A stretch of 64,000 nt of DNA from an uncultured Pseudobdellovibrionaceae bacterium (lineage in GTDB: Bacteria > Patescibacteriota > Minisyncoccia > Moranbacterales > GCA-2747515): contig CAYXCH010000006.1 of assembly GCA_964463705.1 (NCBI GenBank), positions 32,576-96,575 on the forward strand. The letters run 5' to 3'. Positions 29,940-59,573 of the stretch are shown one piece after another. The number at the start of each line of letters is the position of its first letter. Positions within the stretch are counted from its first letter, which is position 1. The translations under genes were made by a program, and so were the position numbers. The notes under the pieces are model-generated. The model was not told the origin of the DNA. It was given only the letters and a program-made list of their open reading frames with translations, and made no database searches.

Positions 29940-30035
29940 ATGTATATTATTATCAACTTAATCCTCTCTCATCATACCACCGCAAAAATTGCTCCGCAAG
30001 TAGACAAGTATTGGGAACTGTTGCGTTCCATATCT

Positions 30036-32345
30036 TTAATCAAAATCTGATGATTTGCACTTACGATCCGGCACCGGCGCAACAATAATCTTACGGTCCA
30101 TTTCCTCGTAATATTTTCGAACACCACGCTCCCACGCCGTATACTGCGGATCTCTTTCCGGATGTTTTGGCGGCGGACCGAGCGGATTTTCTCTATCAAC
30201 ATAGTGCAAAATGCTGTGCGCGTTAATAAACTTACGCCGCTTGACATCCCGATCCGCATCCTCGCACGCATCGGATTTAAGGCACCAAGTATTCTTTTTC
30301 TTAGAAATGCGACATACTTTTTCCTCCACCATTTCCGGTACAAATCCATCCCGCAGCGGGCGACGCTCCGTATCATCATCTGTCGTCTTCGCATCAGACC
30401 CTTCCGCCTCATCATCACCATAATCCGGAAAATGCTCAATGCGCGTCCCGTCCAACGATTGTTCCAAAAACGCTCGCCAAATCGGTGCCGCTACGACGCT
30501 TCCCGACGCACCATCTCGCATTGGCCGGTTATCATTATTCCCCACCCATACACCAACCGCCAATGAGGGTGTATATCCCATTGTCCACGCATCACGAAAA
30601 CTGTTTGTCGTTCCCGTCTTTGCTGCAACAGGACGATCATCAAACCGCAACGGATTATTTGCGGAAAACGCCGGAACGCGGTACTTGTTGGTGGATAGTG
30701 CCTCATCAAGCATTGCAACATATTCCTCCTCCACTACACGCACCCCCTCCGTATCATGCCACTGTTCCACCACTTCTCCCTCTTTATCCTCAATACGCAA
30801 AATCATTGTCAGCGGCTTACGCACTCCGCCGTTTGCAAGGGTTGCATAGGCATGAGTATGATTTAACAGTGTTACTTCTCCACCACCCAACACCAGTGAC
30901 AACCCGTATCGCCGCGGATGCTCCAATCCCGTCACCCCCAGCTCTCGCGCAAGACGTGCCGCCTCCGACACACCAACCAAATACAACGCCTTTACCGCCG
31001 GGATATTCAAGGACATCGCCAACGCGCGCTTTACCTTTACCGGACCGCGAAATGTCCCATCATAGTTTCGCGGCTCATACGGATCTTCCCCGTCATCAAA
31101 TCGTGTTCGCACATCATACAGAATTGTATCCGGTGAGTACCCCTTACGAAACAACCCCAAATATACATAGGGTTTAAACGAGCTTCCCGGCTGTCGAAAG
31201 CGCATGGCAACATTAACATTTCCATCAATCTCGCGACTAAAATAGTCTACACTTCCCACCATCGCCAATACCTGTGCCGTCCGAGGATCAATCGCTACCA
31301 ATGCGGCATTTTCGGCATTATACCGAGCATTACGCTCTACCCCTTCACGAACGACCGTCTCGGCCCGGCGCTGTGCCTCCATATCAATCGTCGTAATCAC
31401 TCGCATCCCCGCCTCCTCCAACTCTTGTTTTCCGTAGCGCTTCTCCAAATACTCACGGATCGCCATCACAAAATGTGGCGCCCGAATCTGTGTTCGTTGC
31501 GGTGTTATCTTTTCTAACGTATCAATCGCCTTTGCCTCATCGGCACGTTGACGAGTAATGTATCCCAACTCCGCCATCTGATCCAGCGCATAGTGCTGAC
31601 GTCGTACAAGACGCTCCAAACGAGCCGGAGATGTGTTATACGGAGAATAGCGGGACGGTTGTTGCGGAAGCGCCGCCAGCAATGCCGCCTCATCCAGCGT
31701 CAGCTCTCGTGCATGTTTACCGAAAAATGTCTGCGCCGCCGCTTCAATTCCATATGCGTTGGACCCATACGGAATTTCGTTAAGGTACATTGCCAAAATT
31801 TCATCTTTGGTAAACTTACGCTCCAACTCCATTGAAAGAATAACCTCCTTCAGTTTGCGCTCATATGTACGCTCACTGGTCAATAACGTATTCTTAATCA
31901 ACTGCTGTGTAATCGTTGACCCTCCACTGCTGCGACCACCAACCAACTGCGGAAACACTTGGGAAATTGCCGCACGAAGAATTGCGGTAATCTTAACACC
32001 GTGATGTTTGTAAAAATCTTGATCCTCCAATGCAAGTGTCGCATAGCGCACAACTGTTGGAATTTCTTCAAATGGAATAATTGTTCGCTTCTCCTCTCCG
32101 TGAATATCATACAATAGTACCGTCCCCGTCCGATCATAAATTTTCGTAGACTCCACCACCTTCAATGCGGTAATCTCATCAGCGGGCGGCAAGTCTTTTG
32201 CGTAATACCAAAACACTCCCGCCGCTCCCACAAGCGCAATCACGCCGAGTGTCAATATACCGTATGTCGCAATTCGCCCTATCGTTCGCCACATTGTCCG
32301 CCGCGATGCCCGCCGTCGCTTTCGCATATGATATCGTGCACCCAT
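30036..32345 (-). CDS. mrcA: Class A penicillin-binding protein (bifunctional glycosyltransferase/transpeptidase, PBP1A-like)
   Basis: N-terminal TM, GT51 motifs (LEDQDFYKHHGV, GGSTITQQLIKN), and transpeptidase motifs (PGSSFKP, SLN, KTGTT). Confidence 0.9.
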   Translation of the reverse strand: MGARYHMRKRRRASRRTMWRTIGRIATYGILTLGVIALVGAAGVFWYYAKDLPPADEITALKVVESTKIYDRTGTVLLYDIHGEEKRTIIPFEEIPTVVRYATLALEDQDFYKHHGVKITAILRAAISQVFPQLVGGRSSGGSTITQQLIKNTLLTSERTYERKLKEVILSMELERKFTKDEILAMYLNEIPYGSNAYGIEAAAQTFFGKHARELTLDEAALLAALPQQPSRYSPYNTSPARLERLVRRQHYALDQMAELGYITRQRADEAKAIDTLEKITPQRTQIRAPHFVMAIREYLEKRYGKQELEEAGMRVITTIDMEAQRRAETVVREGVERNARYNAENAALVAIDPRTAQVLAMVGSVDYFSREIDGNVNVAMRFRQPGSSFKPYVYLGLFRKGYSPDTILYDVRTRFDDGEDPYEPRNYDGTFRGPVKVKRALAMSLNIPAVKALYLVGVSEAARLARELGVTGLEHPRRYGLSLVLGGGEVTLLNHTHAYATLANGGVRKPLTMILRIEDKEGEVVEQWHDTEGVRVVEEEYVAMLDEALSTNKYRVPAFSANNPLRFDDRPVAAKTGTTNSFRDAWTMGYTPSLAVGVWVGNNDNRPMRDGASGSVVAAPIWRAFLEQSLDGTRIEHFPDYGDDEAEGSDAKTTDDDTERRPLRDGFVPEMVEEKVCRISKKKNTWCLKSDACEDADRDVKRRKFINAHSILHYVDRENPLGPPPKHPERDPQYTAWERGVRKYYEEMDRKIIVAPVPDRKCKSSDFD

Positions 32346-32504
32346 AAAAACACCTCGTTAACTTACACCCGTATTTTACCGCACTTAAAGTAATTGCGCC
32401 AATTATTCTCTTTCCGAAAAATTGTTATTTGCAAAGAGCAGAGTTCGGAAAATAAAACGCATTCTATTTATTGGCAATGTGCCACGACAAACAAAAATCC
32501 ATCG

Positions 32505-33338
32505 TTATTTCAAAACACTGTCAATGGCCTGCATATACTTTTCCGGCTGACCAATAAAATCAAAATGTCCGCCTTTTACTGAACAAAATCCATCCAAATA
32601 TCCATCTTCATACGCTTTCCCTAATTTCTTTTGAATTTTATCCATAAAAAAAGTAAGATCATCTGCGCCGGCAATGACTGAAATTTTAATTCCTTTTTCT
32701 TTAAGTTCTTTCATAATTTCCATAATGTCAAATTCGGCCAATTCGCTTACTTCATCATATGATCGGCGTGGATTTTTTTGAATATATTTAGCCGATTCTT
32801 TTATCATTCTATAGCCGTCAGCTGGATAATTAACAATAAATTTTAATAAATCCATCACAAATAAACCGAATAATTTAAATTTATTTTCCCATCCGGTTAA
32901 GCCGGCCGGATTTAATAAAACTATATTATTAAATTTTTCCGGATATTGTCTGGCTACCAGCAACAAATTTATAGCCCCTTCCGAATAACCGATTGCATCC
33001 GTCTTCTCAATCTGTTTTCTCTCCAATATTGAAAGTAAAGAAACCGCCTTACGGAGTTCCTCTGTTTCTTCCTTGCTTCCATCAATTCTAGCATGACTCA
33101 ACGATACCACTCGACGTTTTTGTTTAGCCAATTCTTTTAACGGTTTTTCTATAGAATCGATTGTTATTGACCAGCCGGGAGCAAAAAACACCGGAATATC
33201 CGTTTTCATTTCGTCGGGAACAATATCAATGGTGTCAATTGTTCCCCAGGTAAATTCTTCTTGTCCTTTAAATACCTTTAATTCAATTTCTTTTCGGCCC
33301 TTTTCCGAAAAATCAATATTATCCCTTGGTGAAAACAT
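32505..33338 (-). CDS. Alpha/beta-fold hydrolase
   Basis: GYSEGA nucleophile elbow (GxSxG) with downstream Asp/His candidates. The local GC is markedly lower than in neighbouring genes. Confidence 0.6.
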   Translation of the reverse strand: MFSPRDNIDFSEKGRKEIELKVFKGQEEFTWGTIDTIDIVPDEMKTDIPVFFAPGWSITIDSIEKPLKELAKQKRRVVSLSHARIDGSKEETEELRKAVSLLSILERKQIEKTDAIGYSEGAINLLLVARQYPEKFNNIVLLNPAGLTGWENKFKLFGLFVMDLLKFIVNYPADGYRMIKESAKYIQKNPRRSYDEVSELAEFDIMEIMKELKEKGIKISVIAGADDLTFFMDKIQKKLGKAYEDGYLDGFCSVKGGHFDFIGQPEKYMQAIDSVLK

Positions 33339-33774
33339 AATTAATAAAGTTATCTACAACTGTTTTAGAAATCTCTCTGCCTATTCTGTTACAGAATTTT
33401 TCATTTTAATGGTTAAGTCAATACTATCTTAAAAGCTGTTTATTCCCCCGCTTACAATAAGGGATTGGCATTTGAATTTGAGTGCAAGAGCACATCCGTT
33501 TACGAAATAAGTTTTCATAGCAAACTCAATCACAAAGCGATGACTGCTTTACAAAGTAAAATACTTATTTAGAGCTTGTCAACTATTTGTATTTTTGATG
33601 TGTCGCTTCTATCACAAAATACACTTTGGATAAAAACAAGTTGTACAGAATTCCACTACACTTTTGCTTCACTCTGTTGCCATCTTAGCGCATCATTAAA
33701 AACATATTATATTAAGCATTACAACCCCGTACGCATTTCGAAATCTGAACGAGTACTTTATTTGTTGCACTATA

Positions 33775-34260
33775 TTACCTTACATCAACAATCTCAATTT
33801 CTATAACATTAGAGGTCTCAATCTCTCCAGTTTGTGCATTTCTGGCGGTAATGAATACTTTGTGCGGTGATGATTTTTTCGGGAATTTACTGGCGTGTAT
33901 TTTTATATAGTTGCTTTCATTTTTTTGTATCAAGCGACCACTAATCGGTATTTTATTTCCATTATCATCAATAATGTACACGATAAAATCACTACCGCTC
34001 GGAAAAGATTTACTTGTTCTAAAGTAAACTGTTTCGGAGTTTGTATACTTGCTGCCGGCACGAATAAAAAACGTGCCTTCATTTTCTACTTCATGACTTG
34101 CGGAAACGTTATATTGTCGCTTAGGCTGCGCACTTTTCTCTGTTTGCTCTTCTATCCATTCTATTGCTACAGGAATAAGATTTAATACTCCGACAATAAC
34201 CATAGATAATATGATGAGTACTATAATTCCAACAATGTCGCCTTTATTGTTCGTAGTCAT
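33775..34260 (-). CDS. TM-anchored small protein with beta-rich extracytoplasmic domain, hypothetical
   Basis: N-terminal TM (IVGIIVLIILSMVIVGVL). AT-rich codon usage. The neighbouring gene is 13 nt downstream on the same strand. Confidence 0.4.
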   Translation of the reverse strand: MTTNNKGDIVGIIVLIILSMVIVGVLNLIPVAIEWIEEQTEKSAQPKRQYNVSASHEVENEGTFFIRAGSKYTNSETVYFRTSKSFPSGSDFIVYIIDDNGNKIPISGRLIQKNESNYIKIHASKFPKKSSPHKVFITARNAQTGEIETSNVIEIEIVDVR

Positions 34261-34272
34261 GGATGTTTGAAG

Positions 34273-35049
34273 TTAAGAAGAAATGATTGCGTAGGTAAAA
34301 TATGATATTGTAATACCTATGGCGAGCATTGAGACTATATAAAACCATGTAAGCCACTTCCTTTCAAGGAAAAATAATAATGTGTTTATTAGTCCGGACA
34401 CAATGGCAACAATAATTGCATATATGCCTATATATTCATCAGGAGTTCCAAATAAAAATATCAAGCCTATGCCAATACAAACAATTGGAAACAATGACAT
34501 GAGAATCAAAAAAGTGACACCCTCTTCGCCGATAAGTCCCTTAATGGTTTTATCTTTGGAAAGTAGAACAATAAGAAATTCTCTTAGAGAATACCGTATT
34601 GACGGCAATTGCCTTACCGGGTTGTTGTAGAATGGATGATATAGCAAATAAATAGAGAGAATTGTACTTATTATCATAGCAAGCTGTTCCAATATAAGTA
34701 CCGCCATGAAAATATCTTGCCCACCATTAAGTGAGTATTCCTCCTTAATCACAAAAAAGAACGGTATCATTAAAAAATTAAGCACTACCATTAAGATTAA
34801 TGCCAGCCTTTGTCCATAAAGAATGCCGTATATGGCATAAGTGTCCAAATACAACCAAACAGCTGAAAACGGAATATACAGTAAAAGTGCTATGAGGCAA
34901 CCAAAGTCTGTACACCCGTTATAAAACTTGAGTATTGACGGTACCACCTGCATAAAAACAACCAGACCCACACATGCTATCACCAACGCCTGCCAAGGAC
35001 GTCCCGACAGAAATTCTTGTCGTATAATATTGTTTACACCCATACCCAC
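34273..35049 (-). CDS. Polytopic membrane protein, hypothetical
   Basis: Seven to eight hydrophobic helices. No recognisable motif. Confidence 0.45.
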   Translation of the reverse strand: MGMGVNNIIRQEFLSGRPWQALVIACVGLVVFMQVVPSILKFYNGCTDFGCLIALLLYIPFSAVWLYLDTYAIYGILYGQRLALILMVVLNFLMIPFFFVIKEEYSLNGGQDIFMAVLILEQLAMIISTILSIYLLYHPFYNNPVRQLPSIRYSLREFLIVLLSKDKTIKGLIGEEGVTFLILMSLFPIVCIGIGLIFLFGTPDEYIGIYAIIVAIVSGLINTLLFFLERKWLTWFYIVSMLAIGITISYFTYAIISS

Positions 35050-35426
35050 AATACTATTTTAGTTATTCAATATTTTGGCTAACAAAATAACACAAGTCAT
35101 ATATCGTCTTTCACGCAATCCATTATACCATACTATTAAAGTATTCAGTTGGTGTGTTTGAGGTAAACATATTTTTTATTTTTTGTAAAAAATACGATTT
35201 ACATTGTATACGGCATGCTCTTTTAGAGAGCTTTACTGTGCAACGTTTAAAAAATTTTACATAACTTAAATCACCTAAAATCTTTATTCTATGATCTTCA
35301 TATACTGCCATTTTAAACATTTACGAAAGCCTTGGCATTTAATCTAAAACCAACATTAAAAACTATTTAAGTGCTCCTGTCGCCGCACTCATATTTTGCC
35401 ACACTTGCAGTAACGCGCCATTGTGT

Positions 35427-37145
35427 CTACAGTATGAAGCGAGATTTTACTTGCTCCCACACTTCCCGTGAGTAAAATTCTGGTCGCATAATTTTATCCT
35501 CATCCAACAATCCCCATTTTTTCAAAATCCGCGCGGAATCAATATTGACTCCTGATACATAAGCATACTTATCTGCCCCAAATTTTTCCAATTCCTTCAT
35601 CACACGCAATTGCTCCAAATACACCAAATCCTTGGAACTCGTAGGTTCTCCACCGGATAGTGAACGAGCTCCACGGAACAGTCGCAATGTACGATTAACC
35701 GCCAGGCGCATCAATCGATCTCGCTCTGCGCGTGCAGACGTTGCCGAAACCGCATTGGTGGACTCCTGTTTATCTATTGACTGAACAGCATTTTTATAGA
35801 ATGTCTCCACGCACTGCGCAAAATCTCCACCGGTACTGCGCACGGCAAGCGCTCGCACATAATTTGACGCCGGCAATTGACGATAACCAAACAACTCCCG
35901 AGAAATTTTATCCTGGTTGTACATTGCGCCCGCTTCGGCATACAGCTCCGATCTATCCCCGCGAATATCGCCAAATAACTTAAGAGGTAAATGCTTTCTA
36001 TTTTCACTTTGCAATACATGCCCCTCCACTTCATGCGCACACGCCACGGAAACCGCCTTGGCAATGGAAATTTTTCTGCACGGAATTTTAATAACTTTTT
36101 GCACACCATCTACAAACATTCCTCCACCATCGGTTACCACCACTTGCCACTTGTTATCCGATGCCGGCCCCGGACGATTTACGGTATAATACTTGGAATC
36201 CTCCATGCTCTTGACACCGTACTGTTCCAACACAAATTCCACCATACGCACCACCTCCTCACTATCAACAGTTTCCGCAAATAATTTTTCCGGATCAATA
36301 CCTCGCTGACGGATACGCTCTTCTCGCATGCTATCGTTTTGATACCGTTCGGCATCAATATAATCGGCAAAATCAAGAAGTTCTTTGGTTAAAGCCGAAT
36401 ATATGCCTGACACATCCGGAGAATCACTCGCCCCGAACACAAACCGATCGTATCGTGCGGTATTGCGATCTGATTGCTTGGGTGGTGATTGAGTAAAGCG
36501 CTTATCTGCAGCTATTGCCATTTGCGTCCGTGCAATCAATTCATTGACACGCTGTAGATACAGTATTAAAAAATCCTTCTTAATTGAATCGTTCTCTCCG
36601 GGCAATTGTGTCAATTCGTTTTTTATACGCTGCTTAAACGCCCGCAAGTCCCGCAATTTTTTCTCGGTTTCATCCGGATTAAGCACATAGTGCACCCGCT
36701 CTGTTACACCGGCATCCAGAGAAAACGTCTCTCCACGTTGCAACTGCTGCTGAAACCGCTCTACACTATCATTACAAAAGTATTGCATGGAACGATTTCC
36801 CAACTCCTTTATTTCCGTGATATCAGTCGTTGACATCTTCCCAATGCTGCGCGTGATTTCTTCCGTCACTGATTGCGGAGAATTGCCCAACAACTTCACT
36901 CCGGTTACCTCCGTGAAATCCTTCCGTCCGTGATCAGTTAAAAAGTACCCGGTATAAAAATCCGTCGTTACTACCGGGACTTTGTATATTTCATACAACT
37001 CATCGCCAAGTCTGTTTTCATACGCTATAAACTCTACGCGCTCAGACTCAGATAACCGATACACCTCTTGATTTTCCAATTTTTGAACCGACCCAGCAAT
37101 TGTTTCCGGTGGACGCCGCGGGTAGAGTGATTCTTTTTCGTACAT
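35427..37145 (-). CDS. Putative zinc metallopeptidase (HExxH) of a family often linked to ATP-grasp ligases
   Basis: CAHEVEGHV contains an HExxH motif with a downstream Glu (ELYAEAG). It lies head-to-tail with RimK-like genes on the same strand. Confidence 0.5.
   Translation of the reverse strand: MYEKESLYPRRPPETIAGSVQKLENQEVYRLSESERVEFIAYENRLGDELYEIYKVPVVTTDFYTGYFLTDHGRKDFTEVTGVKLLGNSPQSVTEEITRSIGKMSTTDITEIKELGNRSMQYFCNDSVERFQQQLQRGETFSLDAGVTERVHYVLNPDETEKKLRDLRAFKQRIKNELTQLPGENDSIKKDFLILYLQRVNELIARTQMAIAADKRFTQSPPKQSDRNTARYDRFVFGASDSPDVSGIYSALTKELLDFADYIDAERYQNDSMREERIRQRGIDPEKLFAETVDSEEVVRMVEFVLEQYGVKSMEDSKYYTVNRPGPASDNKWQVVVTDGGGMFVDGVQKVIKIPCRKISIAKAVSVACAHEVEGHVLQSENRKHLPLKLFGDIRGDRSELYAEAGAMYNQDKISRELFGYRQLPASNYVRALAVRSTGGDFAQCVETFYKNAVQSIDKQESTNAVSATSARAERDRLMRLAVNRTLRLFRGARSLSGGEPTSSKDLVYLEQLRVMKELEKFGADKYAYVSGVNIDSARILKKWGLLDEDKIMRPEFYSREVWEQVKSRFIL
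35631..35738. repeat. 108-nt direct repeat, copy A, inside the metallopeptidase-like gene
   Basis: About 96% identical to 38110..38217 (4 mismatches). Confidence 0.8.
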
Positions 37146-37158
37146 ACAACTTTAGTTA

Positions 37159-38049
37159 TCAACTGGAGAAGCTTTTATGAAAACCGGCAAGAATTTCTTG
37201 AACTATGTTTTTATTGCTATGTGCAATTTGAAATCCCTTGAAATTGGCTGATAGGTTAATTTCTATCACCCTGAACCGCTTATTGCTGTCAACGATAATA
37301 TCAACCCCCACATAATCACACAACAATTTTTGCGCAACGTTTTCGGCAAATTTAAACATTTTCACGTCATAATATGATTCAATTGAAGCGCCTTGCGAGA
37401 AGTTATGCTTCCAATCACTGGTTGTGCCCGACCTTTTAATGGCCCCAATGGTCTTTCCGGCACACACTATGACACGGTAATCACAAGTAGTTGGTATAAA
37501 CTCTTGTAAAATAATGCTCTTATCTGGATTTTTGGCAACATAGTCAACTAAATCTTGCTCGGTACTCATTTTATGTACGCTAAGACCGAAGCTTCCCTCA
37601 ACATCCTTTAAAATAATTGGAAACGACCAAGGAATAACCTTCAACAAGTATTTTGAATTTTGGCTTACAGGATGCAAGGTGTCAATTGTCGGTATATTAT
37701 ATTTCAAAAAAAGTTCATATTGTGAAAATTTATCAAAAAATGGATTTTTTGCAAAAAAATCACCATTTACCACCGGAACAGAATTTTCTCGTAAAAATAA
37801 TATCAAACGATATGTTGAAATTCTTTTTTTGATAAGTGTATTATCAACCACCTTGTCATGACAACGCACAATAGCGCCGTTAAATTGTGAAATATCCAGT
37901 AACCGCTGACGATAAATCAGTTTATTTTCATAAAAAAACAGGTTATCAACATTTATAAAAACAAACTCCCAATTCAACCTCAACGCCTCTTCTTTTATGG
38001 TTTTTACTGAGTGAAATTTTTCATTAAAACCAAAATATATAACTTTCAT
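37159..38049 (-). CDS. RimK-like ATP-grasp ligase
   Basis: DYRVIVCAGKTIGAIKRSGTTSDWKHNFSQGA matches the RimK DIR..VG...A..R....DFRSN...GG signature. Confidence 0.65.
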   Translation of the reverse strand: MKVIYFGFNEKFHSVKTIKEEALRLNWEFVFINVDNLFFYENKLIYRQRLLDISQFNGAIVRCHDKVVDNTLIKKRISTYRLILFLRENSVPVVNGDFFAKNPFFDKFSQYELFLKYNIPTIDTLHPVSQNSKYLLKVIPWSFPIILKDVEGSFGLSVHKMSTEQDLVDYVAKNPDKSIILQEFIPTTCDYRVIVCAGKTIGAIKRSGTTSDWKHNFSQGASIESYYDVKMFKFAENVAQKLLCDYVGVDIIVDSNKRFRVIEINLSANFKGFQIAHSNKNIVQEILAGFHKSFSS

Positions 38050-38058
38050 ATATTTTAC

Positions 38059-38316
38059 TTAATCCTCAAATCTAACCGAACACCTACCTATACTCACCAT
38101 TTTACAGTACTTGGAACTTGTAAGTTCTCCACCGGATAGTGAACGAGCTCCACGAAACAGTCGCAATGTACGATTAACCGCCAGGCGCATCAATCGATCT
38201 CGCTCCGCGCGTGCAGATTCTGAAAGTTCGCAAACGTCCTGATTTTTTAATTGTTCTACCGACTCCTTCACCATATCTGGCTGTCTTTGCGGATACAGTA
38301 ATAAGTTCTCTAGCAT
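38059..38316 (-). pseudogene. Internally deleted remnant of a paralog of the 35427..37145 gene
   Basis: The N-terminal ~37 aa are homologous to the N-terminus of the 572-aa protein (LYPqRqP...SVeqLkNQ...LSES). The sequence then jumps directly to a near-identical copy of its residues ~455-490 (ARAERDRLMRLAVNRTLRLFRGARSLSGGE). Confidence 0.5.
38110..38217. repeat. 108-nt direct repeat, copy B
   Basis: About 96% identical to 35631..35738. Confidence 0.8.
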
Positions 38317-38331
38317 AAATATTTCAACAGA

Positions 38332-39261
38332 TTATTTCAACTTGCTCTTGATAAGCTCTACAATTTCATCACTCATATCAACTCCAACAGCGTCAAGGCA
38401 ATGTTTGTACAATCCCGGACGTCCATTTTCATCAATAATCTTATATCCTTCATCGGTAGCGATAAAATCAAACCCTATAATATCTTTTCCGATCGCTTGT
38501 TGTGCTTTTACAGCAATATGTGCCAACTCTTCACTAACAGGTGCCGGTACCGTCTTTTGCCCGCGACCGTCCTGTTTAAGCGGATCATAAATTTTCCAAT
38601 CTACTTCATCTGATAATAACGGTTTGCGATACCCGAATAATGCCCGTCCGTTACACACCACCACCGAAATCCATCGTGACAAATCATTTTGATAGTACTT
38701 TTCTACCAAAAACTGCTGTTTAGCACCACTGAATCCCTGTACATATTCTATGCAACTTTGTAATTCATCAAATTTATCAAAACGCATAATACCAATTCCC
38801 CATCCACCGAAACGTGGCTTAAGCAACACATCACCGCCAAACGTATCAAAAACTTTGTGCAATCCGTCAATGTCACCACTGCGAATCAATGCAAAATCAC
38901 CTACCGGTAGACCTGCCTTTTTGAGCCTCGTATGTGCGAGAAACTTATCATTTGTTATACGCACACTCTCTCCTGTATTGATTACCGCTACATCAGCACC
39001 CATCACATCCAACATATGACAAAAGTAATTATCCGCTCTCCAATCAGACGGTCGTACCGTATCATGCCAAAAATAAACATCCAAATCATTTAAACACACA
39101 TCACCAACATACACTTTATTGTTGATAATGACTCCGTTGCGAAAGTCTGCCTCCACCAAATCACAATTCGTAGCGGCAACAATATCACGCTTTATGTGCT
39201 CAATATATTCGGGGGTAAAAATTCCCTGAACTGATTTATGAAATCCTATACGCTTTTTCAT
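38332..39261 (-). CDS. ATP-grasp superfamily ligase (RimK/GshB-like)
   Basis: LKPRFGGWGIGIMRFDKFDEL ... ISVVVCNGRALFGYRK pattern of the ATP-grasp fold. The start is probably MKKRIGF. Confidence 0.6.
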   Translation of the reverse strand: MKKRIGFHKSVQGIFTPEYIEHIKRDIVAATNCDLVEADFRNGVIINNKVYVGDVCLNDLDVYFWHDTVRPSDWRADNYFCHMLDVMGADVAVINTGESVRITNDKFLAHTRLKKAGLPVGDFALIRSGDIDGLHKVFDTFGGDVLLKPRFGGWGIGIMRFDKFDELQSCIEYVQGFSGAKQQFLVEKYYQNDLSRWISVVVCNGRALFGYRKPLLSDEVDWKIYDPLKQDGRGQKTVPAPVSEELAHIAVKAQQAIGKDIIGFDFIATDEGYKIIDENGRPGLYKHCLDAVGVDMSDEIVELIKSKLK

Positions 39262-40087
39262 ATCGTTTGAGTATATGATTAATAATATGGTTTGCAACAT
39301 TAATTCCGGTCGCCGACTGAAATGCTTCCCATTGCGGGGGAATATTTACTTCCAATACCAATGAATCACTACCACGTTTGATTAAGTCAACACCCGAAAT
39401 ATCATATCCAAACAACTTATGTGCTCGTAATGCCAGCGCCTTTTCCTCTTGTGATAAGTCATACTCCTCAACCTTTCCGCCGAGGGACGCATTGGTGCGA
39501 AAATCTCCTTCATTAGCATACCGCTTAATCGCCCCGAGTACCATATCACCAACCACAAACACACGGATATCGTAGCGAAGCGGAACATATTCCTGAGCCA
39601 AATACCCTATCGGATGTTCTCGCAAAAACTCTAAGGCCTGTTCTTTCGTTTCGTATTTGTTAACACCCTGTCCTTTCTGTGCTTGTTCTGGCTTCAAAAT
39701 AATTGGTGTATCTAACTTAGACAAAACTCGCTTCCACTGTTTCCAGCTTCTGGCATAAACAGTTTTCGGATGCGGAATATTATTTAACTTAAACTGTAAT
39801 GCTTCATAAACCTTCGTAGGAATATACGAACTGGCAAGCACCGTATCAATAACCAATTTATTCTTTATATGTAAATTATAAGCAAGTAACTGTGCAAAAA
39901 CAACAGATTGATTAAATCCCCTGAATATATAGATATCGTGTTGAAAAAATTCCTCCTCGTCCATCGTATCAACGGAAAATGCGATATCCGATATATTATA
40001 TACCACAACCGCAAACCCTCGGCGTGATATTTCTCGCACCAACGATTTTGTGTTAAATGTGTCCGGACCGATAATTGCGAATTTCAT
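39236..40087 (-). CDS. RimK-like ATP-grasp ligase
   Basis: ILKPEQAQKGQGV and YDIRVFVVGDMVLGAIKRYANEGDFRTNASLGG, the classic RimK signature. Confidence 0.75.
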   Translation of the reverse strand: MKFAIIGPDTFNTKSLVREISRRGFAVVVYNISDIAFSVDTMDEEEFFQHDIYIFRGFNQSVVFAQLLAYNLHIKNKLVIDTVLASSYIPTKVYEALQFKLNNIPHPKTVYARSWKQWKRVLSKLDTPIILKPEQAQKGQGVNKYETKEQALEFLREHPIGYLAQEYVPLRYDIRVFVVGDMVLGAIKRYANEGDFRTNASLGGKVEEYDLSQEEKALALRAHKLFGYDISGVDLIKRGSDSLVLEVNIPPQWEAFQSATGINVANHIINHILKRYEKAYRIS

Positions 40088-40096
40088 AAAATATTT

Positions 40097-41512
40097 TTAC
40101 TTACTCACATCAACCAAAAACTTGTAAAGGTTGCGTTTTCCGATAATCATCGGATATTTGAGCTTACTGCGGTCTACAATATTAACTTTTGCCACAATGC
40201 GTACTCCATCCATAATGAACGCCAGTTTTACAACCGGGCGAATCGTTGCGCCACTGGAAGAAAACACAACGGCAACATCTTCCAACTCCGGAATACACTG
40301 CCCGTATCGCTGCATAATACGCGACTTAATTTCACCCTCTCGTTCCGGCGATAACACACTATCGCCGTAATCAATACGATCAAATGCATCCAGTGTTTCA
40401 CCAAATCCCAACTCCCGTGCCAGCGCACGATCAATGGAGGTGGAGTATGCACCGGTGTCAATTTTTGCACTAACGGTGCGTTCGGTACCGTTTCGTCCAA
40501 TCAATGTTACCGTTTCTATGGATCCGATTACACGCTTTCCGGTTGTCTGCTCCACCGATTCCTCAACTTCTCCGCCAAAGAGGTCTTTACCGACACGAAC
40601 ACCGTGCGCAACACTCTTGATTGTTACACCGCTTACTCGTTCCAATCGCTCTTTTAACGGTGCCATATTGGCAATCTGAATAGACAACCCGGGTCGTGCA
40701 TTTAACTCCAAAAATACCGGTCCGCGCTCACGATCAATTACCACATCCGCTCCCAAAAATCCCAACCCGCTCGCCTCCTGCGCCTTCACCGCCAATGTCA
40801 AAATCTCATCCCATTGCGGAATTTTAATACCGGAAAGTAACATACGTGTCCCCGGCGCATATTCCACAATCCGCCCCTTTCCTTGAATTGCCGTAGTTGT
40901 TACTCCCGTTGCCATATCAATTCCGACACCAACACCTCCAAGCTGTAAATTCGCCTTCCCTCCACTCTCACGTGTAGGAAGCCGCAACATTGCCATTACC
41001 GGAACACGATTGTACACGATAATGCGCAGATCCGGAATTCCCCGATATGCATAGGGACGGAACAATTTCAACAGCGTTAACCGCTCTTCAATCAATACCG
41101 TGTCGGATACTCCGGATAACGCAAACGCTCCTTCCACAATATTGTAGCAGTGTGCGGCAATATCTTGTGCGGTAACAATACTCCCATCCGCCTTCACCCA
41201 AGCGTCATGCATTCCCTTCTTTCGCCCGAATACCACCACAATACCGCCACCGCCAAACCCGCGATTTGGCTTGATAACAAATGATTCCGGAAGACTGGAG
41301 TAATCAAATGTACGGACATCGTCATAAGTGCGCAGCGTGGCGATGCGTGTCGGCGTCGGCACACCGGCGCGCGATAATACGTCCTTGCTGAGAATTTTAT
41401 CATCGGCAATACTGCGTGCGGCGGATAAATTCAACGGTCGCACATACGTTAAGTTGCGCGCATTCATTCCCAGGATCCGGTGCGCGTTTCGCACCATCCG
41501 TAATATGTTCAT
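40097..41512 (-). CDS. RimK-related ATP-grasp ligase fused to a C-terminal retropepsin-like (DTG) domain
   Basis: ATP-grasp part: FVIKPNRGFGGGGIVVV ... DLRIIVYNRVPVMAMLRL...GGKANLQLGG. C-terminal part: TVSAKIDTGAYSTSIDRALARELG, with an aspartyl-protease D-T-G-A motif. Confidence 0.7.
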   Translation of the reverse strand: MNILRMVRNAHRILGMNARNLTYVRPLNLSAARSIADDKILSKDVLSRAGVPTPTRIATLRTYDDVRTFDYSSLPESFVIKPNRGFGGGGIVVVFGRKKGMHDAWVKADGSIVTAQDIAAHCYNIVEGAFALSGVSDTVLIEERLTLLKLFRPYAYRGIPDLRIIVYNRVPVMAMLRLPTRESGGKANLQLGGVGVGIDMATGVTTTAIQGKGRIVEYAPGTRMLLSGIKIPQWDEILTLAVKAQEASGLGFLGADVVIDRERGPVFLELNARPGLSIQIANMAPLKERLERVSGVTIKSVAHGVRVGKDLFGGEVEESVEQTTGKRVIGSIETVTLIGRNGTERTVSAKIDTGAYSTSIDRALARELGFGETLDAFDRIDYGDSVLSPEREGEIKSRIMQRYGQCIPELEDVAVVFSSSGATIRPVVKLAFIMDGVRIVAKVNIVDRSKLKYPMIIGKRNLYKFLVDVSK

Positions 41513-41516
41513 ACAC

Positions 41517-42209
41517 TTACTTCATGCGCATCAGTACATCGCGGAAGCGAATGTACTCGGAAAATCGCAATCCCGTCCATTTACCTACGATAATATTCAG
41601 CGGAATTACCAATAATACACTGTACGGGTGCGCAAATACAAACATTTGGATAGCGCGAGATGACAGCAATGCATGTCCCAACAGTGCCACCACCAACGTC
41701 TCCACCGCCAATAATATCGCCGTCTTTGTTCCTTTTTCAATTTGTACCGCCACAAACTTCTCCGCAATCATCACCAACACAATCAACGGAAACACGTAAA
41801 TGGTGGCAAACCCGGTTCGCTGAAAGTATGCTCCGATTACCAACACCGCCAAGGTTGTAAATGACAATAACGTCATGGTAATCGCTACGCGCGGAAGGTA
41901 CAAAATTCGCACATGGCGCAGAACGGCACGGGAGGCAATGCCCACAACAATCACCGCAATATAAATGGTAATCCCGTACCGCAAATCATATAACATGTCT
42001 CCCAACGCAAACCCGTCATAGCGTGCGTCACTGATCATATAAAACACCAGAGCAATAATGGAAGGGGTGTAAATTCCAAATGCCTTAATTCCAATCACCT
42101 GACGCAGAACAGCCACCAGTGTCGCCACCAGCGGAAACAATAACAAAAGCAGCACCGTTTGGTCCGGAATTCCCAAATAAACAATGATATTATTGATCAT
42201 CGGATGCAT
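41517..42209 (-). CDS. Polytopic membrane protein co-transcribed with the RimK-retropepsin gene
   Basis: Six to seven hydrophobic helices. Only 4 nt separate it from the downstream ATP-grasp gene. Confidence 0.5.
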   Translation of the reverse strand: MHPMINNIIVYLGIPDQTVLLLLLFPLVATLVAVLRQVIGIKAFGIYTPSIIALVFYMISDARYDGFALGDMLYDLRYGITIYIAVIVVGIASRAVLRHVRILYLPRVAITMTLLSFTTLAVLVIGAYFQRTGFATIYVFPLIVLVMIAEKFVAVQIEKGTKTAILLAVETLVVALLGHALLSSRAIQMFVFAHPYSVLLVIPLNIIVGKWTGLRFSEYIRFRDVLMRMK

Positions 42210-42230
42210 AATTGCAGTATACCAAAGAAA

Positions 42231-42716
42231 CTACATTTGCACACTGTTACGCATGGCTGCATGGCAAATAGCTACCGCCAATGCATCCGCCGCATCGTCC
42301 GGAGTCGGTAAATCGGAAAGGGTGCAAATTTTTTGCACCATCAGTTGCACTTGGTGTTTTTGCGCCCGCCCATGTCCCGTCACCGACTGCTTTACCTGCG
42401 AAGGAGTGTATGCGTCAATGGAAAGATTAGCATTGGCACACGCCGCCAGTAACACCCCGCGCGCCTGTGCAACGGGAATTACCGTTGTATGATTTTTCGC
42501 AAAAAACAACCGTTCCACCGCCGCTTCCTGCGGAGTGTACCGTGTAATAATCTGAGCAATATCTCGGGCGATTTCCGCCAACCGCTGCGCGTCGGATAAT
42601 ACGCTGTCCGTGGTAATACAACCATGCGCAACATGATGAATACGGGAACCATCCGCATCAATCACTCCCCAGCCGACAATCGCCGTCCCGGGATCAATAC
42701 CTAAAATTCTTGTCAT
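42231..42716 (-). CDS. ruvC: Holliday junction resolvase
   Basis: MTRILGIDPGTAIVGWGVID N-terminus with catalytic acidic residues. Confidence 0.9.
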   Translation of the reverse strand: MTRILGIDPGTAIVGWGVIDADGSRIHHVAHGCITTDSVLSDAQRLAEIARDIAQIITRYTPQEAAVERLFFAKNHTTVIPVAQARGVLLAACANANLSIDAYTPSQVKQSVTGHGRAQKHQVQLMVQKICTLSDLPTPDDAADALAVAICHAAMRNSVQM

Positions 42717-43426
42717 GATACTGTCGTAAACACCTCTTGCACATCATCACAATCTTCTATTGCCGCGCGCAATTTTTCATACGCCGCCGCATCAGCATCA
42801 TTTAACACAGTCTCTTGTGTCGGAACATACGCAATGCGTGCGTCCACCACCGTTGCTCCCTCCGCTTCCAACGCCTCTCGCACCCGATGCAAATCTGACA
42901 CCGCCGTTGTAACAATCATCGTCTCTCCTTCCATCTCAATATCCTGTGCCCCACTTTCAATCGCCGCCAATTCTATACGTTCCGTATCATCCGCCGTTAC
43001 CGCCAACTGTCCAACATGAGAAAATTGAAACAATACACCGCCACCGGACACAAATTTTCCACCATTTTTCTTCAATGCCGTTTTTACATCCGTCAGCGTA
43101 CGATTTGTATTATCCGTGGCACAGACGATAACAAACGCACTTCCTCCCGGTCCCATTGCCTCATACACAACCTCCTCAATCCGCGCACCATCACCACCCT
43201 CACCGGTTCCGCGCGCAATCGCCCGCGCAATATTATCCTTGGGCATATTAATTGCTCGCGCCTTCTCAATCGCCATTTTCAATGATGCGTTCATTTCCGG
43301 ATCTCCGCCGCCATGTTGAGCCGCCAGCGTAATCGCTTTTGCTGCAACAGTAAACAACTTCGCGCGCTTTGCGTCTTGCGCTCCTTTACGATGCTTAATA
43401 TTCGCCCATTTACTGTGTCCCGCCAT
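42713..43426 (-). CDS. yebC: YebC/PmpR-family transcriptional regulator
   Basis: MAGHSKWANIKHRKGAQDAKR N-terminus. Confidence 0.9.
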   Translation of the reverse strand: MAGHSKWANIKHRKGAQDAKRAKLFTVAAKAITLAAQHGGGDPEMNASLKMAIEKARAINMPKDNIARAIARGTGEGGDGARIEEVVYEAMGPGGSAFVIVCATDNTNRTLTDVKTALKKNGGKFVSGGGVLFQFSHVGQLAVTADDTERIELAAIESGAQDIEMEGETMIVTTAVSDLHRVREALEAEGATVVDARIAYVPTQETVLNDADAAAYEKLRAAIEDCDDVQEVFTTVS

Positions 43427-46079
43427 ACAATTCTTTCTTACGTTGATTCTGTGTATTCATCATACCATGATTTCTTAATATCGCTGCCGCATAAAGTGCT
43501 GCGGGGTCCGGCATTTGTGCGGGAAGTACCGCCGCTCTCCCCGTTCGCGGAATTAGCTCTGTTGTTGGGTATGATATCGGGCGGGGTGATAGGGTGGGTA
43601 CAATTCGCGTCATTATCACTCGTATGTTCTCCCATACCGTGGGAACAACAACACCCGCATCATGCACTGTTACCACCTTCGCTCCCGCCACACGCGGCGC
43701 GTTGGGAACACCAAACTCATTATCCCATGCACGGGCAATTATCGCTGATACATCGGGGGTGGCTATGGCACGTGCGAATTTCCGAGATGCAGATGATTGT
43801 ACGGTGTTTACTGCAGAAATATCCCAATACCACCCGCTGTCATGAGCTCGCCGGCGATACACCGCTCCCGACGGAATTGTTGTGGTATTAGCGGGCGGCA
43901 TGTACCGCACCGTATACGCCACACTGTCATCCGGACGACGCAATTGAACAATTCCACCGGCATTGGGAAGTGTAAATGCACTGTGACGCGAAACGATGTG
44001 CTTCTCTTCCCCATCATGAAGAACGATACGGCGACGAAACGGGTGGCGTGTCAATTGTTTCATTGTTGTGCCGGTTGCGATACTCCATCCGCGTAAATCC
44101 ACACGCGCATCAGAAGTATTTTTAATGACAATATATTCCGTTCCCGTATCGGCACCCGGTGGATTTGGCGCTACAGCGCGAATCTTTACAGCATGACGCG
44201 GATAGGTACGTACACGCACCACCTCCGTTTGTACCGTCTCCTCACTACCGTCTTGAATGCGAAGATGTACCGTATACGTACCGGTGCGTTTATAGAGATG
44301 AGACGTTTTTGCGCGATAGCTACGATGACCATCTCCAAAGTCCCAGCGATATCGCAATGCATCTCCATCATCATCTGTCGCCCGAACGGAAAATGATGCA
44401 CGAACATTGCGATAGATCGTGTCCGGAATATTCACCGACACGATCTGCGGGCGCGCATTAAACATGTTTGCCGCACCCGGTGTGCGCTTCTTGCTCCACC
44501 GATACGCTCCCTCTGTTGTACGGTTAAGCGATGCACCTTCGGGGGCACTGCGGGAAAACTCCACCGTATCCACTATCGTTTCCCCGCCGTCTTCCGTTGG
44601 AGCGGATAGTGTCACACGCTCTGCAGAGTTATTTAACGCAAAGCCGAATGTACGGCGTGAAACAACCATCAATGACTGTGGCATAAGCGTTGTGTGATCA
44701 TCAAACACATAACGTGCGCCGGACACATCACTCAATACCCAGGCATGCAACGATACGGCACGGTTCTCCATATTGTACAACTCAATATATTCTTCCGCCT
44801 GCTCATCACCGGACGGATTGGGATACAATTCATTGATAACAACGCGCGCTCCATCATAAGATGGTGGGCATTGCACTGTTCGTAAGATTGGATGTGTACA
44901 TCGCCGAGCTATTGTTGTAGTACCGTTTTCATGCGCAACGTATTCCTCGTTCCCGGGGTTTCGCACCGGTGTCGCACCAAACGGATCACGCAATGCATCG
45001 CCCCATGCCACTGCATCCACTACCACTCGTTTATCATCCAGTAGTGCAATACTGTTGTTGGGAGAAAGTCGAGCGGACACACTTGTATTAACACCGTCGG
45101 CACGGGAAGCATAGCGGCTGTCAGCGGGAGCATAGATAAATTGTTCCCCGGAATGTAACACCGTATCTCCGAATGTATACACTTTCGTACTGGTGCTCAA
45201 ACGAGTTACTTCACCGTGTTGCGATCGGGTACGCTTACGCAAATACCAGCCATGTAATGACACATCACACTCCGTAATATTTCTTATTATTACCGAATCA
45301 TTTTTTGTGCTATCCGCATCTCCGATTGTCACTGCGACAATGCGAACAGCGTGATCATCACAAGATGATTCCTCACTCTTCACGTTATCAGGTGAACTAT
45401 TATCCCCTACATTATTGGGTAAATTATTATCCTTTGTATTGGTATTTATTTCATCAGACGTTGTGGATGATGACTCCACAGTATTCATTGGTGATGAGTC
45501 TGATGGTGTATTCTGTTTTGGCTGATTTGATGGTGCGGTATCAGGTGGTGACACATCATTACTGAGTGATGCATCATCAGTGGATGACGTGGCAGAAGAT
45601 TGTGTAGACACAGTGTTATCTTCCGCTAAATTATTTTCTACATCAGAAACAACAGCAGTATCGGATACCGTTTCCGAACTTACCGCATTAGATGAGGTGT
45701 CGGATGAGGAGGATGGTGATTGTTCAAGAGGTGCAGATATTGCCGCTCGATCGTCGGAGTGCTCCGTGGTGGAAGAAGTGGTGCCGGATGTATTGGAAAT
45801 ATTCGTTTCGTGATATGAGGAAGGATTATCCGGTGATATATCAAGTTCCTTTTCCGTAGATGATGATTGTATGGATTGATTAGTGGGTATTTCCTCCGAT
45901 GCAACATCATCAGAAGGTGATACCTCACCGTCGGAAGATAACTCTGATGGAACAGGAGTATCTTCGGACAACTCCTGCGCTTTTACATACAGGGTACTAC
46001 CGCCAAATATTACCACCCCATATAACACACCAAGCCATAACAATCGCCCATACCCTCTCTCACTGTCGCGTCGTTTCAT
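43410..46079 (-). CDS. Large secreted/anchored protein with Ser/Thr-rich region, three lamin-tail-like (LTD) domains and a PKD-like domain
   Basis: Signal anchor (LLWLGVLYGVVIFGG). LTD-like motifs (NELYPNPSGDEQAEEYIELYNMENRAVSLHAW; VAPNPPGADTGTEYIVIKNTSDARVDLRGW; TIGDADSTKNDSVIIRNITECDVSLHGW). PKD-like motif (RYRWDFGDGH). The start is probably MKRRDSERG at 46079. Confidence 0.6.
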   Translation of the reverse strand: MKRRDSERGYGRLLWLGVLYGVVIFGGSTLYVKAQELSEDTPVPSELSSDGEVSPSDDVASEEIPTNQSIQSSSTEKELDISPDNPSSYHETNISNTSGTTSSTTEHSDDRAAISAPLEQSPSSSSDTSSNAVSSETVSDTAVVSDVENNLAEDNTVSTQSSATSSTDDASLSNDVSPPDTAPSNQPKQNTPSDSSPMNTVESSSTTSDEINTNTKDNNLPNNVGDNSSPDNVKSEESSCDDHAVRIVAVTIGDADSTKNDSVIIRNITECDVSLHGWYLRKRTRSQHGEVTRLSTSTKVYTFGDTVLHSGEQFIYAPADSRYASRADGVNTSVSARLSPNNSIALLDDKRVVVDAVAWGDALRDPFGATPVRNPGNEEYVAHENGTTTIARRCTHPILRTVQCPPSYDGARVVINELYPNPSGDEQAEEYIELYNMENRAVSLHAWVLSDVSGARYVFDDHTTLMPQSLMVVSRRTFGFALNNSAERVTLSAPTEDGGETIVDTVEFSRSAPEGASLNRTTEGAYRWSKKRTPGAANMFNARPQIVSVNIPDTIYRNVRASFSVRATDDDGDALRYRWDFGDGHRSYRAKTSHLYKRTGTYTVHLRIQDGSEETVQTEVVRVRTYPRHAVKIRAVAPNPPGADTGTEYIVIKNTSDARVDLRGWSIATGTTMKQLTRHPFRRRIVLHDGEEKHIVSRHSAFTLPNAGGIVQLRRPDDSVAYTVRYMPPANTTTIPSGAVYRRRAHDSGWYWDISAVNTVQSSASRKFARAIATPDVSAIIARAWDNEFGVPNAPRVAGAKVVTVHDAGVVVPTVWENIRVIMTRIVPTLSPRPISYPTTELIPRTGRAAVLPAQMPDPAALYAAAILRNHGMMNTQNQRKKELYGGTQ

Positions 46080-46680
46080 CACTCTTTTGTCCCACCTCTT
46101 TGCCGATTGATTCCTGATACGCCTCTCGCTGGCGCTGTACAAGCATTGCCTTAATTGCGTACGGATCGGGAACACGACGAAATAAAAATCGGGAGTGTTC
46201 CGCTGCCGTTTGTACTTCCACATCTCCAAAATTCAATAATGTCGGAATAAATCCGCGTACTTTTGTTGTTACATCCTGTACCGTATGAAAATGCAATTCA
46301 CTGACATGACGAGAAAATAATCCTTTTTGTTCAATATTAATCACTCGCTGATCCGTTACCACCCATACGTCCAGCCAGTAATCAATCCAGATAATAAATC
46401 CATAAAACCATAGCCATATCAGTATGACACTGTTAACAAACAATACTGTCCACAATGACAGTCCATTTAACTCAAATACGCGAATGATTTCTTCCGCCAT
46501 TATAATGCTGATTAATTGCAATATCACAACCACCGCAATCAGCGCATAGTGCATCGTAATATCAAACCAGTGCCGATGAATCACCCAAAGAATCTTCTCA
46601 TCATCTCGCTGACCCGAAAAATGATAATGAGAAAAGTCCTCAAAGTCATGTGTTACAATACCGCGAAATTTATGTGTCAT
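46060..46680 (-). CDS. Membrane protein with bacterial PH (bPH_2/YdbT-like) domain
   Basis: Two TM helices followed by WVVTDQRVINIEQKGLFSRHVSELHFHTVQDV, typical of membrane-flanked bPH domains. Confidence 0.55.
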   Translation of the reverse strand: MTHKFRGIVTHDFEDFSHYHFSGQRDDEKILWVIHRHWFDITMHYALIAVVVILQLISIIMAEEIIRVFELNGLSLWTVLFVNSVILIWLWFYGFIIWIDYWLDVWVVTDQRVINIEQKGLFSRHVSELHFHTVQDVTTKVRGFIPTLLNFGDVEVQTAAEHSRFLFRRVPDPYAIKAMLVQRQREAYQESIGKEVGQKSDETTRQ

Positions 46681-59235: not shown

Positions 59236-59309
59236 GGGCGATTAGCTCAGTTGGTTAGAGCACTTCTCTTACAAAGAAGGGGTCAGTGGTTCGAGTCCAC
59301 TATCGCCCA
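59236..59309 (+). tRNA. tRNA-Val (anticodon UAC)
   Basis: Acceptor GGGCGAU/AUCGCCC, anticodon loop CUUACAA, T-loop UUCGAGU. Confidence 0.85.
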
Positions 59310-59327
59310 CTGGGTAGGCATGGAGAT

Positions 59328-59399: not shown

Positions 59400-59416
59400 C
59401 CTACTCGTTGCAAGCG

Positions 59417-59489: not shown

Positions 59490-59494
59490 CAATC

Positions 59495-59566: not shown

Positions 59567-59573
59567 CAGAGAA

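Follow-up and report, generated by a model that had tools for sequence, protein, structure and literature searches.

An Rlo-like cassette of ATP-grasp ligases and predicted peptidases in a bacterium of the Candidate Phyla Radiation

The gene run and its protein families

Seven reading frames follow each other on the minus strand at positions 35427-42209 of the window, as we call the whole 64,000-nucleotide stretch of contig CAYXCH010000006.1 analyzed here, and together they comprise genes for a membrane protein, for four ligases of the ATP-grasp superfamily, one of which is fused to a retropepsin-like peptidase domain, and for a predicted zinc metallopeptidase. The locus belongs to a common gene cassette whose core resembles the Rlo operon of Pseudomonas aeruginosa, and its chemistry, as argued below, may consist in the building and trimming of acidic peptide tails. 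An initial annotation, made from the letters alone, had described seven genes, and our check of the open reading frames (ORFs) recovered all of them on the minus strand with unchanged coordinates and with family matches far beyond chance; six are intact and tightly packed, and the seventh, at 38059-38316, turned out to be an 85-codon pseudogene remnant of a MATCAP-like gene. The spacing between neighboring genes of the set ranges from -26 to +15 nucleotides (nt), and the set therefore fits a single operon, which probably continues from the ruvC gene that lies 21 nt upstream of the membrane protein gene. The features, in the direction of transcription, are:

41517-42209, minus: membrane protein, 230 amino acids (aa)
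40097-41512, minus: RloC-type ATP-grasp ligase with fused retropepsin-like domain, 471 aa
40631-41458, minus: RloC-type ATP-grasp domain of the fusion protein (aa ~19-294)
40106-40531, minus: RloA/RimB-type retropepsin-like aspartic peptidase domain of the fusion protein (aa ~328-469)
40448-40465, minus: KIDTGA, with the catalytic D352-T-G-A at 40448-40459, checked in the sequence
39236-40087, minus: RimK-A, 283 aa
38332-39261, minus: RimK-B, 309 aa, with an alternative upstream ATG at 39300
38059-38316, minus: remnant of a MATCAP-like gene, 85 codons
37159-38049, minus: RimK-C, 296 aa
35427-37145, minus: predicted MATCAP/DUF1704-fold protein, 572 aa
36018-36035, minus: H371-E-V-E-G-H376, the HExxxH zinc motif of the 572-aa protein, checked in the sequence
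35928-35942, minus: YAEAG, with the predicted third zinc ligand E404

The 230-aa protein had been described as a 7-TM-like membrane protein, and this description holds: it matches PF14402 (7TM_transglut) with 88 bits (E 8e-25, profile positions 40-247 of 248), and a hydropathy scan shows about seven hydrophobic segments. With the NCBIfam model of RloB (NF052267) it aligns over model positions 311-506 of 508 only (72 bits, cut-off 900), and we assign it by these alignments as a homologue of the C-terminal membrane half of RloB, without the inactive transglutaminase domain. In the 471-aa fusion protein, the ATP-grasp domain matches PF14397 (ATPgrasp_ST) with 223 bits (cut-off 31.4, E 5e-66) and TIGR02291 with 278 bits, which is under the equivalog cut-off of 314; judged by its scores, the fused ligase is of the same family as the RloC proteins of TIGR02291, without being a called equivalog. 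The four ligases had initially all been taken as RimK-like, and profile and PDB searches indeed place all four within the ATP-grasp/RimK superfamily, the fused one, however, being of the RloC/ATPgrasp_ST type and not RimK proper. The peptidase domain of the fusion protein matches the retropepsin-like family PF05618 with 36.8 bits (cut-off 27) and the RloA1-3 models at about 1e-9, and it aligns with the solved chains 9g59 and 9g58, which were deposited as 'putative ATP-dependent zinc protease domain' proteins.

Among 19 homologues of the fusion protein, the ATP-grasp residues K81, E143, D256, E269, and N271 and the peptidase residues D352-T-G-A355, R425, R448, and G458 are invariant; the DTGA motif, first noted as a sign of an aspartyl-protease-like domain, thus lies at the catalytic position of the retropepsin-like domain. 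RloA has been shown to cleave poly-Glu of at least eight residues, using K46, R114, and R137 (PMC12239564). In the alignment with 9g58, residues K350/D352/R425/R448 of the fusion protein correspond to K46/D48/R114/R137 of RloA, given a 20-residue offset between the 9g58 chain and the RloA precursor numbering that is our own deduction. R425 and R448 are invariant in the 19 homologues and K350 is nearly so; the fused retropepsin therefore appears to have kept the basic, acid-binding channel for its substrate. The hydropathy scan detected no hydrophobic segment in the fusion protein, which for this reason is regarded as cytoplasmic, and none in the other ligases and peptidases of the operon. The public record contains a shorter, 456-aa call of the fusion protein (97% coverage) with a start downstream of 41512 (region 41468-41512); since L14 and G15, which lie upstream of that start, are conserved, the 471-aa form starting at 41512 is supported.

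The three separate ligases all pass the domain cut-off of PF08443 (21 bits), and they differ in how close they come to characterized enzymes. RimK-A reaches 125 bits with PF08443 and 146 bits with the RimK family model TIGR00768 (rimK_fam), above its cut-off of 143.4, and among solved proteins it comes closest to E. coli RimK (5zct/4iwx, E 1e-21), so that by sequence it is the nearest of the three to true RimK. RimK-B scores 54 bits with PF08443 and 89 bits with TIGR00768, below the cut-off, and its matches to the MptN, rimK_fam, and LysX models (~1e-22 to 1e-25) all remain below the respective cut-offs; the best solved relatives are 3vpd, deposited as an S6 modification protein, and 1uc8, a lysine biosynthesis enzyme (E 7e-15). 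We take 1uc8, perhaps together with 3vpd, to be of the LysX type, and RimK-B is classified here as a putative RimK-family ligase of the LysX/ArgX-like type. Its gene overlaps that of RimK-A by 26 nt, and the orthologues in the related loci L001, L107, and L109 (we refer to related loci by L numbers), with 55-73% identity, have the same overlap with the preceding gene. RimK-C gives 80 bits with PF08443 and 97 bits with TIGR00768, again below the cut-off, and is most similar among solved proteins to 3vpb and E. coli RimK (~5e-9). Its gene has a very low G+C content (0.34), and a search of 5.8 billion sequences yielded just eight further clusters of homologues. RimK-A, B, and C share at most 30% identity with one another and with the fused ligase, and the three are therefore not recent duplicates. 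For all of them the equivalog models PRK10446 RimK, MptN, LysX, and CofF stay far under their cut-offs. The A/B/C trio is kept in L107 and L109 at 40-58% identity.

The 572-aa protein matches no Pfam or NCBIfam model, including PF08014 and TIGR02421, even at E values up to 10; among PDB sequences the protein itself matches nothing, and a profile of seven homologues gives spurious matches only. Its family was recognized through its relatives. In the index of 5.8 billion sequences, eight proteins matched it, one of them being itself, and two others carry PF08014, the family now named MATCAP; within its seven-member family, three match PF08014 (best E 3.9e-7). An hhalign comparison of the family profile with a canonical MATCAP-family neighbor gene gave 86% probability with the metal motifs covered, and blastp against the canonical MATCAP of L107 gave E 6.8e-8. 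H371, E372, H376, E404, and G406 are invariant in the seven-member alignment. MATCAP/TMCP enzymes are defined by an unusual HExxxH spacing and a downstream Glu ligand, and act as carboxypeptidases that take residues singly off acidic tubulin tails (PMC10499314). The HEVEGH motif, initially labelled as HExxH, has exactly this HExxxH spacing. The guess of a DUF1704/QEGLA protein that accompanied the label was right, even though the protein itself is too diverged to match PF08014: it falls within the MATCAP fold, and we classify it as a divergent long form of the MATCAP/DUF1704-fold zinc metallopeptidases, with predicted activity. The long form is a small group, with 545 clusters at 50% identity (E <=0.001) among 1.84 billion representatives. 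Literature searches on DUF1704/QEGLA, or on MATCAP together with ATP-grasp enzymes, yielded nothing relevant.

The pseudogene between RimK-B and RimK-C has no Pfam match. Over its first 36 codons it matches the N-terminal part of the intact MATCAP-like gene at 50% identity, and it contains a 108-nt direct repeat that is 96% identical to positions 35631-35738 of this gene (blastn and local alignment); it is a mosaic left over from a second copy of the gene. The gene order supports a history of this kind. In L107 and L109 the fusion gene is followed by a C-type, an A-type, and a B-type ligase and then by a MATCAP-family gene, so that the RimK-C orthologue comes directly after the fusion, whereas the window has the order A, B, remnant, C, MATCAP-like; RimK-C has therefore come to its position after RimK-B through a rearrangement that destroyed one peptidase copy.

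Distribution of the cassette and flanking genes

Homologues of the fused ligase-peptidase are frequent, with at least 5,793 found at E <=1e-10 in a search limited to 8,000 candidates with shared sequence words. The best 120 of these are nearly all 450-491 aa long, most of them 465-475, and both PF14397 and PF05618 are present in 115; the few of the 120 with source names are mostly Moranbacteria and other Patescibacteria. Gene neighborhoods were assessed in 80 metagenome loci that had been recovered by the fusion protein alone and were annotated with local hidden Markov models. In 62 of 66 such loci, the gene immediately upstream of the fusion codes for a 7TM protein. Downstream counts refer to the 45 loci with at least 4.5 kb after the fusion gene: none, one, two, or three RimK-like ligases follow in 8, 12, 15, and 10 loci, respectively, and hence at least one in 37. 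A MATCAP-family gene occurs within 7 kb in 6 of the 45 (~13%; four canonical, two of the long form), and a gene for the class A penicillin-binding protein PBP1A within the same distance in 19.

A second survey of 18 species-level genome loci, seeded with the long MATCAP-like protein, contained the full cassette in seven and an adjacent ATP-grasp gene in three more. Full cassettes with a MATCAP-family gene come from metagenome-assembled genomes (MAGs) labelled Moraniibacteriota, Microgenomates, or Patescibacteria only, and their flanks differ. The cassette is thus widespread in the Candidate Phyla Radiation (CPR), and the window carries a well-endowed member of it and not a singular system. The initial annotation had regarded the locus as the best candidate for an uncharacterized system, which has to be revised, as the core is that of Rlo, genetically studied in P. 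aeruginosa (PMC12239564), and the cassette is common in the CPR. Variants of it differ mostly downstream of the fusion gene. L027 has the architecture of the window, but with a canonical MATCAP, and the slot of the MATCAP-like gene is taken in related genomes by a canonical MATCAP (L024) or a GT4 glycosyltransferase (L025, 10381-11442). The 102 accessory ligases that we clustered are very diverse and only partially conserved in position, and RimK-A, B, and C of the window fell outside the clusters of the sampled loci, their orthologues being found later via a homologue search with RimK-C.

These comparisons point to a conserved core of 7TM protein and fusion protein, and to a variable accessory slot occupied by the downstream ligase/MATCAP block. 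The accessory block has probably been exchanged horizontally. In the window (35427-40087), as in L024 (9508-11878) and L008 (8060-11803), the ligase/peptidase block has a G+C content at third codon positions (GC3) clearly below that of the neighboring 7TM, fusion, and PBP1A genes. Furthermore, flanking and core proteins of the window are 61-75% identical to those of the closest relative, L001, and the MATCAP-like proteins only 38%. It is the combination of lower GC3 and 38% identity amid flanking proteins of ~72% identity that suggests the exchange.

Several further loci were noted in the course of these surveys. The largest cassette seen is that of L107 (4881-12050, GCA_054028275.1), in which five ATP-grasp genes, the fusion and four more, are followed by a canonical MATCAP. 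Other insertions into the accessory slot are a DUF3541 protein or a GNAT acetyltransferase (L022, 6874-7887; L023, 9082-9564). L003 (6040-10597), from a Paceibacterota MAG, contains neither a 7TM nor a fusion gene; its long-form MATCAP-like gene adjoins a canonical MATCAP and a divergent ATP-grasp gene of the Ddl-like type, and the locus represents a second, simpler ligase/eraser context. L006, L008, and L011 carry the long MATCAP-like gene in MAGs labelled 'uncultured Bdellovibrionales'; the synteny YebC-RuvC-7TM-fusion-PBP1A of L008 is that of Moraniibacteriota genomes, and its taxonomic label may be wrong.

The gene run of the window is bounded by ruvC on one side and by the PBP1A gene on the other, and three further genes lie between the latter and the operon:

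42231-42716, minus: ruvC
34273-35049: 258-aa protein with multiple transmembrane (TM) segments
33775-34260: 161-aa protein with one N-terminal TM segment
32505-33338: alpha/beta hydrolase
30036-32345, minus: PBP1A

The three genes in the middle are located in a low-GC stretch (32400-35400; 0.30-0.39 in 400-nt windows, as compared with ~0.50 in the flanks), which is missing at the same position in L001 and L024 and is probably a recent insertion; neither an integrase nor a flanking repeat was seen at it. We rejected these genes (32505-35049) as members of the system, as no homologues of them were found among 106 related loci. Adjacency to PBP1A was likewise considered as functional evidence and treated as weak, since it is missing in 26 of the 45 loci and in the Microgenomates/Patescibacteria cassette loci L019, L020, L022, and L023. 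The 572-aa gene is followed on its 3' side by an AT-rich gap of 377 nt. Promoter and terminator scans gave results at chance level, an Rfam search of 30000-44000 matched no RNA family, and the PADLOC defense-system models matched none of the operon proteins; the sole PADLOC match was a weak Cas5d-like one (E 1.6e-4) to the unrelated 161-aa neighbor protein. Farther away, just upstream of yebC, a 939-aa protein (43410-46229) has a long Ser/Thr/Asp-rich low-complexity N-terminal region, and the syntenic relatives L024, L025, L107, and L109 have lamin-tail (LTD) and PKD domain proteins in its place. Four tRNA genes (Val-TAC, Phe-GAA, Met-CAT, Gly-GCC) lie within 330 nt at 59236-59567, and three more at 54565, 55809, and 61480.

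Possible functions of the encoded proteins

The most likely function of the operon is an ATP-dependent building of acidic, Glu-rich peptide tails, combined with endo- and exopeptidase trimming at the membrane. Put more specifically, we see an even chance that the locus represents a Moranbacteria-like CPR version of an Rlo or RimK-RimB type peptide-tail system that has been enlarged by additional ligases and a MATCAP-type carboxypeptidase. Ligase and peptidases can be assigned to one pathway because they are naturally fused and co-occur. Furthermore, RimK is known to build poly-alpha-Glu tails that RimB removes, and in P. aeruginosa the deletion of rloB or rloC rescues a triple rloA protease mutant (PMC12239564), which fits a ligase product that needs trimming.

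From the families, the fold, the conserved catalytic residues, the operon packing, and the recurrent co-occurrence and fusion described above, we infer the following steps. The cytoplasmic RloC-type ATP-grasp domain would activate a carboxylate as acyl-phosphate and add amino acids, the likeliest being alpha-linked glutamate, whereby an acidic chain would arise on an acceptor or as a free peptide; glutamate is the probable substrate of at least the RloC-like and RimK-A enzymes. RimK-A (RimK-like), RimK-B (LysX/ArgX-like), and RimK-C (distinct) could then add further residues with differing specificities. The fused retropepsin, as a dimer, would cut inside the acidic chain, and the MATCAP-like HExxxH enzyme would take residues singly off the C-terminus, so that tail length and composition would be set by the balance of ligation and trimming. 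The 7TM protein may tie the process to the membrane as an anchor, acceptor, or exporter. A multistep ligation and trimming had already been proposed in the initial annotation, and the findings that could have spoken against it, a different fold of the ligases or peptidase motifs at unrelated positions, did not emerge; the pathway as such is our reading of these families.

Several observations weigh against this reading. A scan of all ORFs of the window yielded no credible acceptor with an acidic C-terminal tail. Small precursor-peptide genes had been suspected in 33339-33774 and 35050-35426, and the small ORFs of these two intervals are not precursor-like, as they lack acidic or repeat character and are unconserved. 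The peptidase is cytoplasmic here, unlike RloA, and the topology proposed for the Pseudomonas system, with periplasmic product handling, is not directly transferable. RimK-A alone passes a curated family cut-off, whereas RimK-B, RimK-C, and the fused ligase (TIGR02291) remain below theirs, and because of these scores glutamate specificity cannot be transferred to the latter three. Finally, the carboxypeptidase must be regarded as optional, since MATCAP-family genes were found in just 6 of the 45 unbiased loci.

What sets the alternatives apart is mainly the kind of acceptor or product. Protein C-termini are the targets of RimK (S6) and of LysX/ArgX (LysW), and the nearest solved relatives of our ligases belong to these families. 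It could be that the locus serves a dedicated code of protein C-terminal tails, as a bacterial counterpart to the tyrosination/glutamylation of tubulin; the ligases would tag one specific protein whose gene lies elsewhere, for instance one of the ribosome, of cell division, or of the envelope, and the retropepsin and the MATCAP-like enzyme would reverse this tag. The activity of MATCAP on tubulin tails (PMC10499314) would agree with such a role, and so would the recurrence of MATCAP-family genes beside ATP-grasp ligases, some of which give faint matches to TTL (PF03133). However, the ORF scan of the window offers no candidate for the tagged protein either, the authors of the Rlo study found no genome-encoded poly-Glu substrate in Pseudomonas (PMC12239564), and accessory ligases that vary so strongly in number (0-4) and type would be unusual in a system directed at a single conserved protein. 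We regard a dedicated protein target as possible and rather unlikely.

A similarly doubtful case can be made for the non-ribosomal assembly of a free short peptide or poly-amino-acid with an envelope or osmoprotective role, which the 7TM protein would export or anchor, and for which the peptidases would serve in turnover or self-protection. RimK is able to make free poly-alpha-Glu, and free poly-Glu as well as peptidoglycan-related phenotypes are discussed for Rlo (PMC12239564). Several distinct ligases in a row would suit an ordered addition, the slot adjoins PBP1A in 19 of the 45 loci and sometimes holds a glycosyltransferase, and in its low GC3 and high diversity the accessory block is similar to loci for surface structures. 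On the other hand, PF14402 proteins are not known to function in transport, the patchy PBP1A adjacency may be mere lineage synteny, and both peptidases, being cytoplasmic, would encounter the product before its export.

A more far-reaching scenario, which we put forward as a speculation with little probability, is a prokaryotic 'tail code': three to five ordered ATP-grasp ligases would write a defined hetero-peptide, and thus more than poly-Glu, on a membrane-associated acceptor or a peptidoglycan-related substrate, the retropepsin and the MATCAP-type carboxypeptidase would erase it, and horizontal swapping of the ligase block would diversify the product. If this were true, the pairing of MATCAP with TTL-like ligases would go back to an ancient invention of bacteria, older than the tubulin code.

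It is improbable that the ligases glutamylate a small-molecule cofactor or metabolite in the manner of MptN and CofF, with the peptidases as unrelated neighbors: the models of these two enzymes rank high in the NCBIfam matches of RimK-A, B, and C, but with scores far under the equivalog cut-offs (e.g., 131 versus 350 bits), cofactor-pathway genes were not found nearby, and the ligases are consistently linked, and once fused, to peptidases. A graspetide-like cluster for a peptide made by the ribosome and modified after translation (RiPP), in which ATP-grasp enzymes modify a precursor peptide and peptidases remove its leader, is very improbable, as the weak match that RimK-A has to TIGR04187, a model for an ATP-grasp peptide maturase (E 8e-5, 22 bits, cut-off 350), is opposed by the lack of a plausible precursor ORF in or beside the operon, by the position of the ligases in the RimK/RloC clades instead of the graspetide macrocyclase clade, and by the absence of an Rfam or other signal.

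Comparison with known systems

The graspetide and other ATP-grasp RiPP clusters combine an adjacent precursor with a macrocyclase-clade ATP-grasp enzyme, neither of which was found here. The LysX/ArgX enzymes attach an amino acid to the C-terminal Glu carboxylate of a protein. They are the nearest to RimK-B among solved structures, with RimK-B scoring below the equivalog cut-offs, and unlike the LysX/ArgX-LysW systems, the locus has no LysW-like carrier and no lysine or arginine pathway genes nearby. The MATCAP-like protein can be compared with the eukaryotic MATCAP/TMCP enzymes (KIAA0895L, KIAA0895) and the bacterial DUF1704/QEGLA proteins (PF08014, TIGR02421), relative to which it is a long form of ~600 aa outside both models; tubulin is the substrate of MATCAP/TMCP and cannot be that of the protein in the window. 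The locus links MATCAP, a eukaryotic eraser of tubulin tails, to a bacterial ligase/eraser context.

Glutamylation of S6 by RimK-RimB (with RimA) is similar, in that a cytoplasmic alpha-L-glutamate ligase is combined with a cytoplasmic, tail-removing, retropepsin-like peptidase, as here, and in that RimK-A is above the TIGR00768 cut-off and nearest to E. coli RimK. The window differs from it by several ligases, by a partner protein in the membrane, and by an additional type of peptidase.

The counterpart of the core is the Rlo operon of P. aeruginosa, which has a role in hypo-osmotic tolerance and cell shape and consists of the retropepsin RloA, the 7TM-inactive transglutaminase protein RloB, and the ATP-grasp protein RloC (PMC12239564). 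The same three families are combined in the operon of the window, namely a PF14402 7TM protein, a PF14397/TIGR02291-type ATP-grasp enzyme, and a PF05618 retropepsin, and the catalytic DTGA as well as the K/R/R residues for poly-Glu binding are conserved (by the inferred numbering offset). In contrast to the separate, secreted, periplasmic RloA, however, the peptidase of the window forms the C-terminal part of the ligase fusion and lacks a signal peptide, the membrane protein has no transglutaminase-like domain, and the cassette adds up to four RimK-family ligases and a MATCAP-family peptidase. The host also differs, being a CPR bacterium and not a proteobacterium. Rlo has been described as an essentially proteobacterial system, with 96% of RloB in this group (PMC12239564), and a fused, cytoplasmic, transglutaminase-less Rlo core that is widespread in CPR bacteria goes beyond this range. 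In its CPR version the system has repeatedly been expanded by one to four extra RimK-family ligases, and the fusions and co-occurrences offer simple models from small genomes for finding the Rlo product. A clinically studied and biochemically unsolved system is thereby extended into the CPR bacteria.

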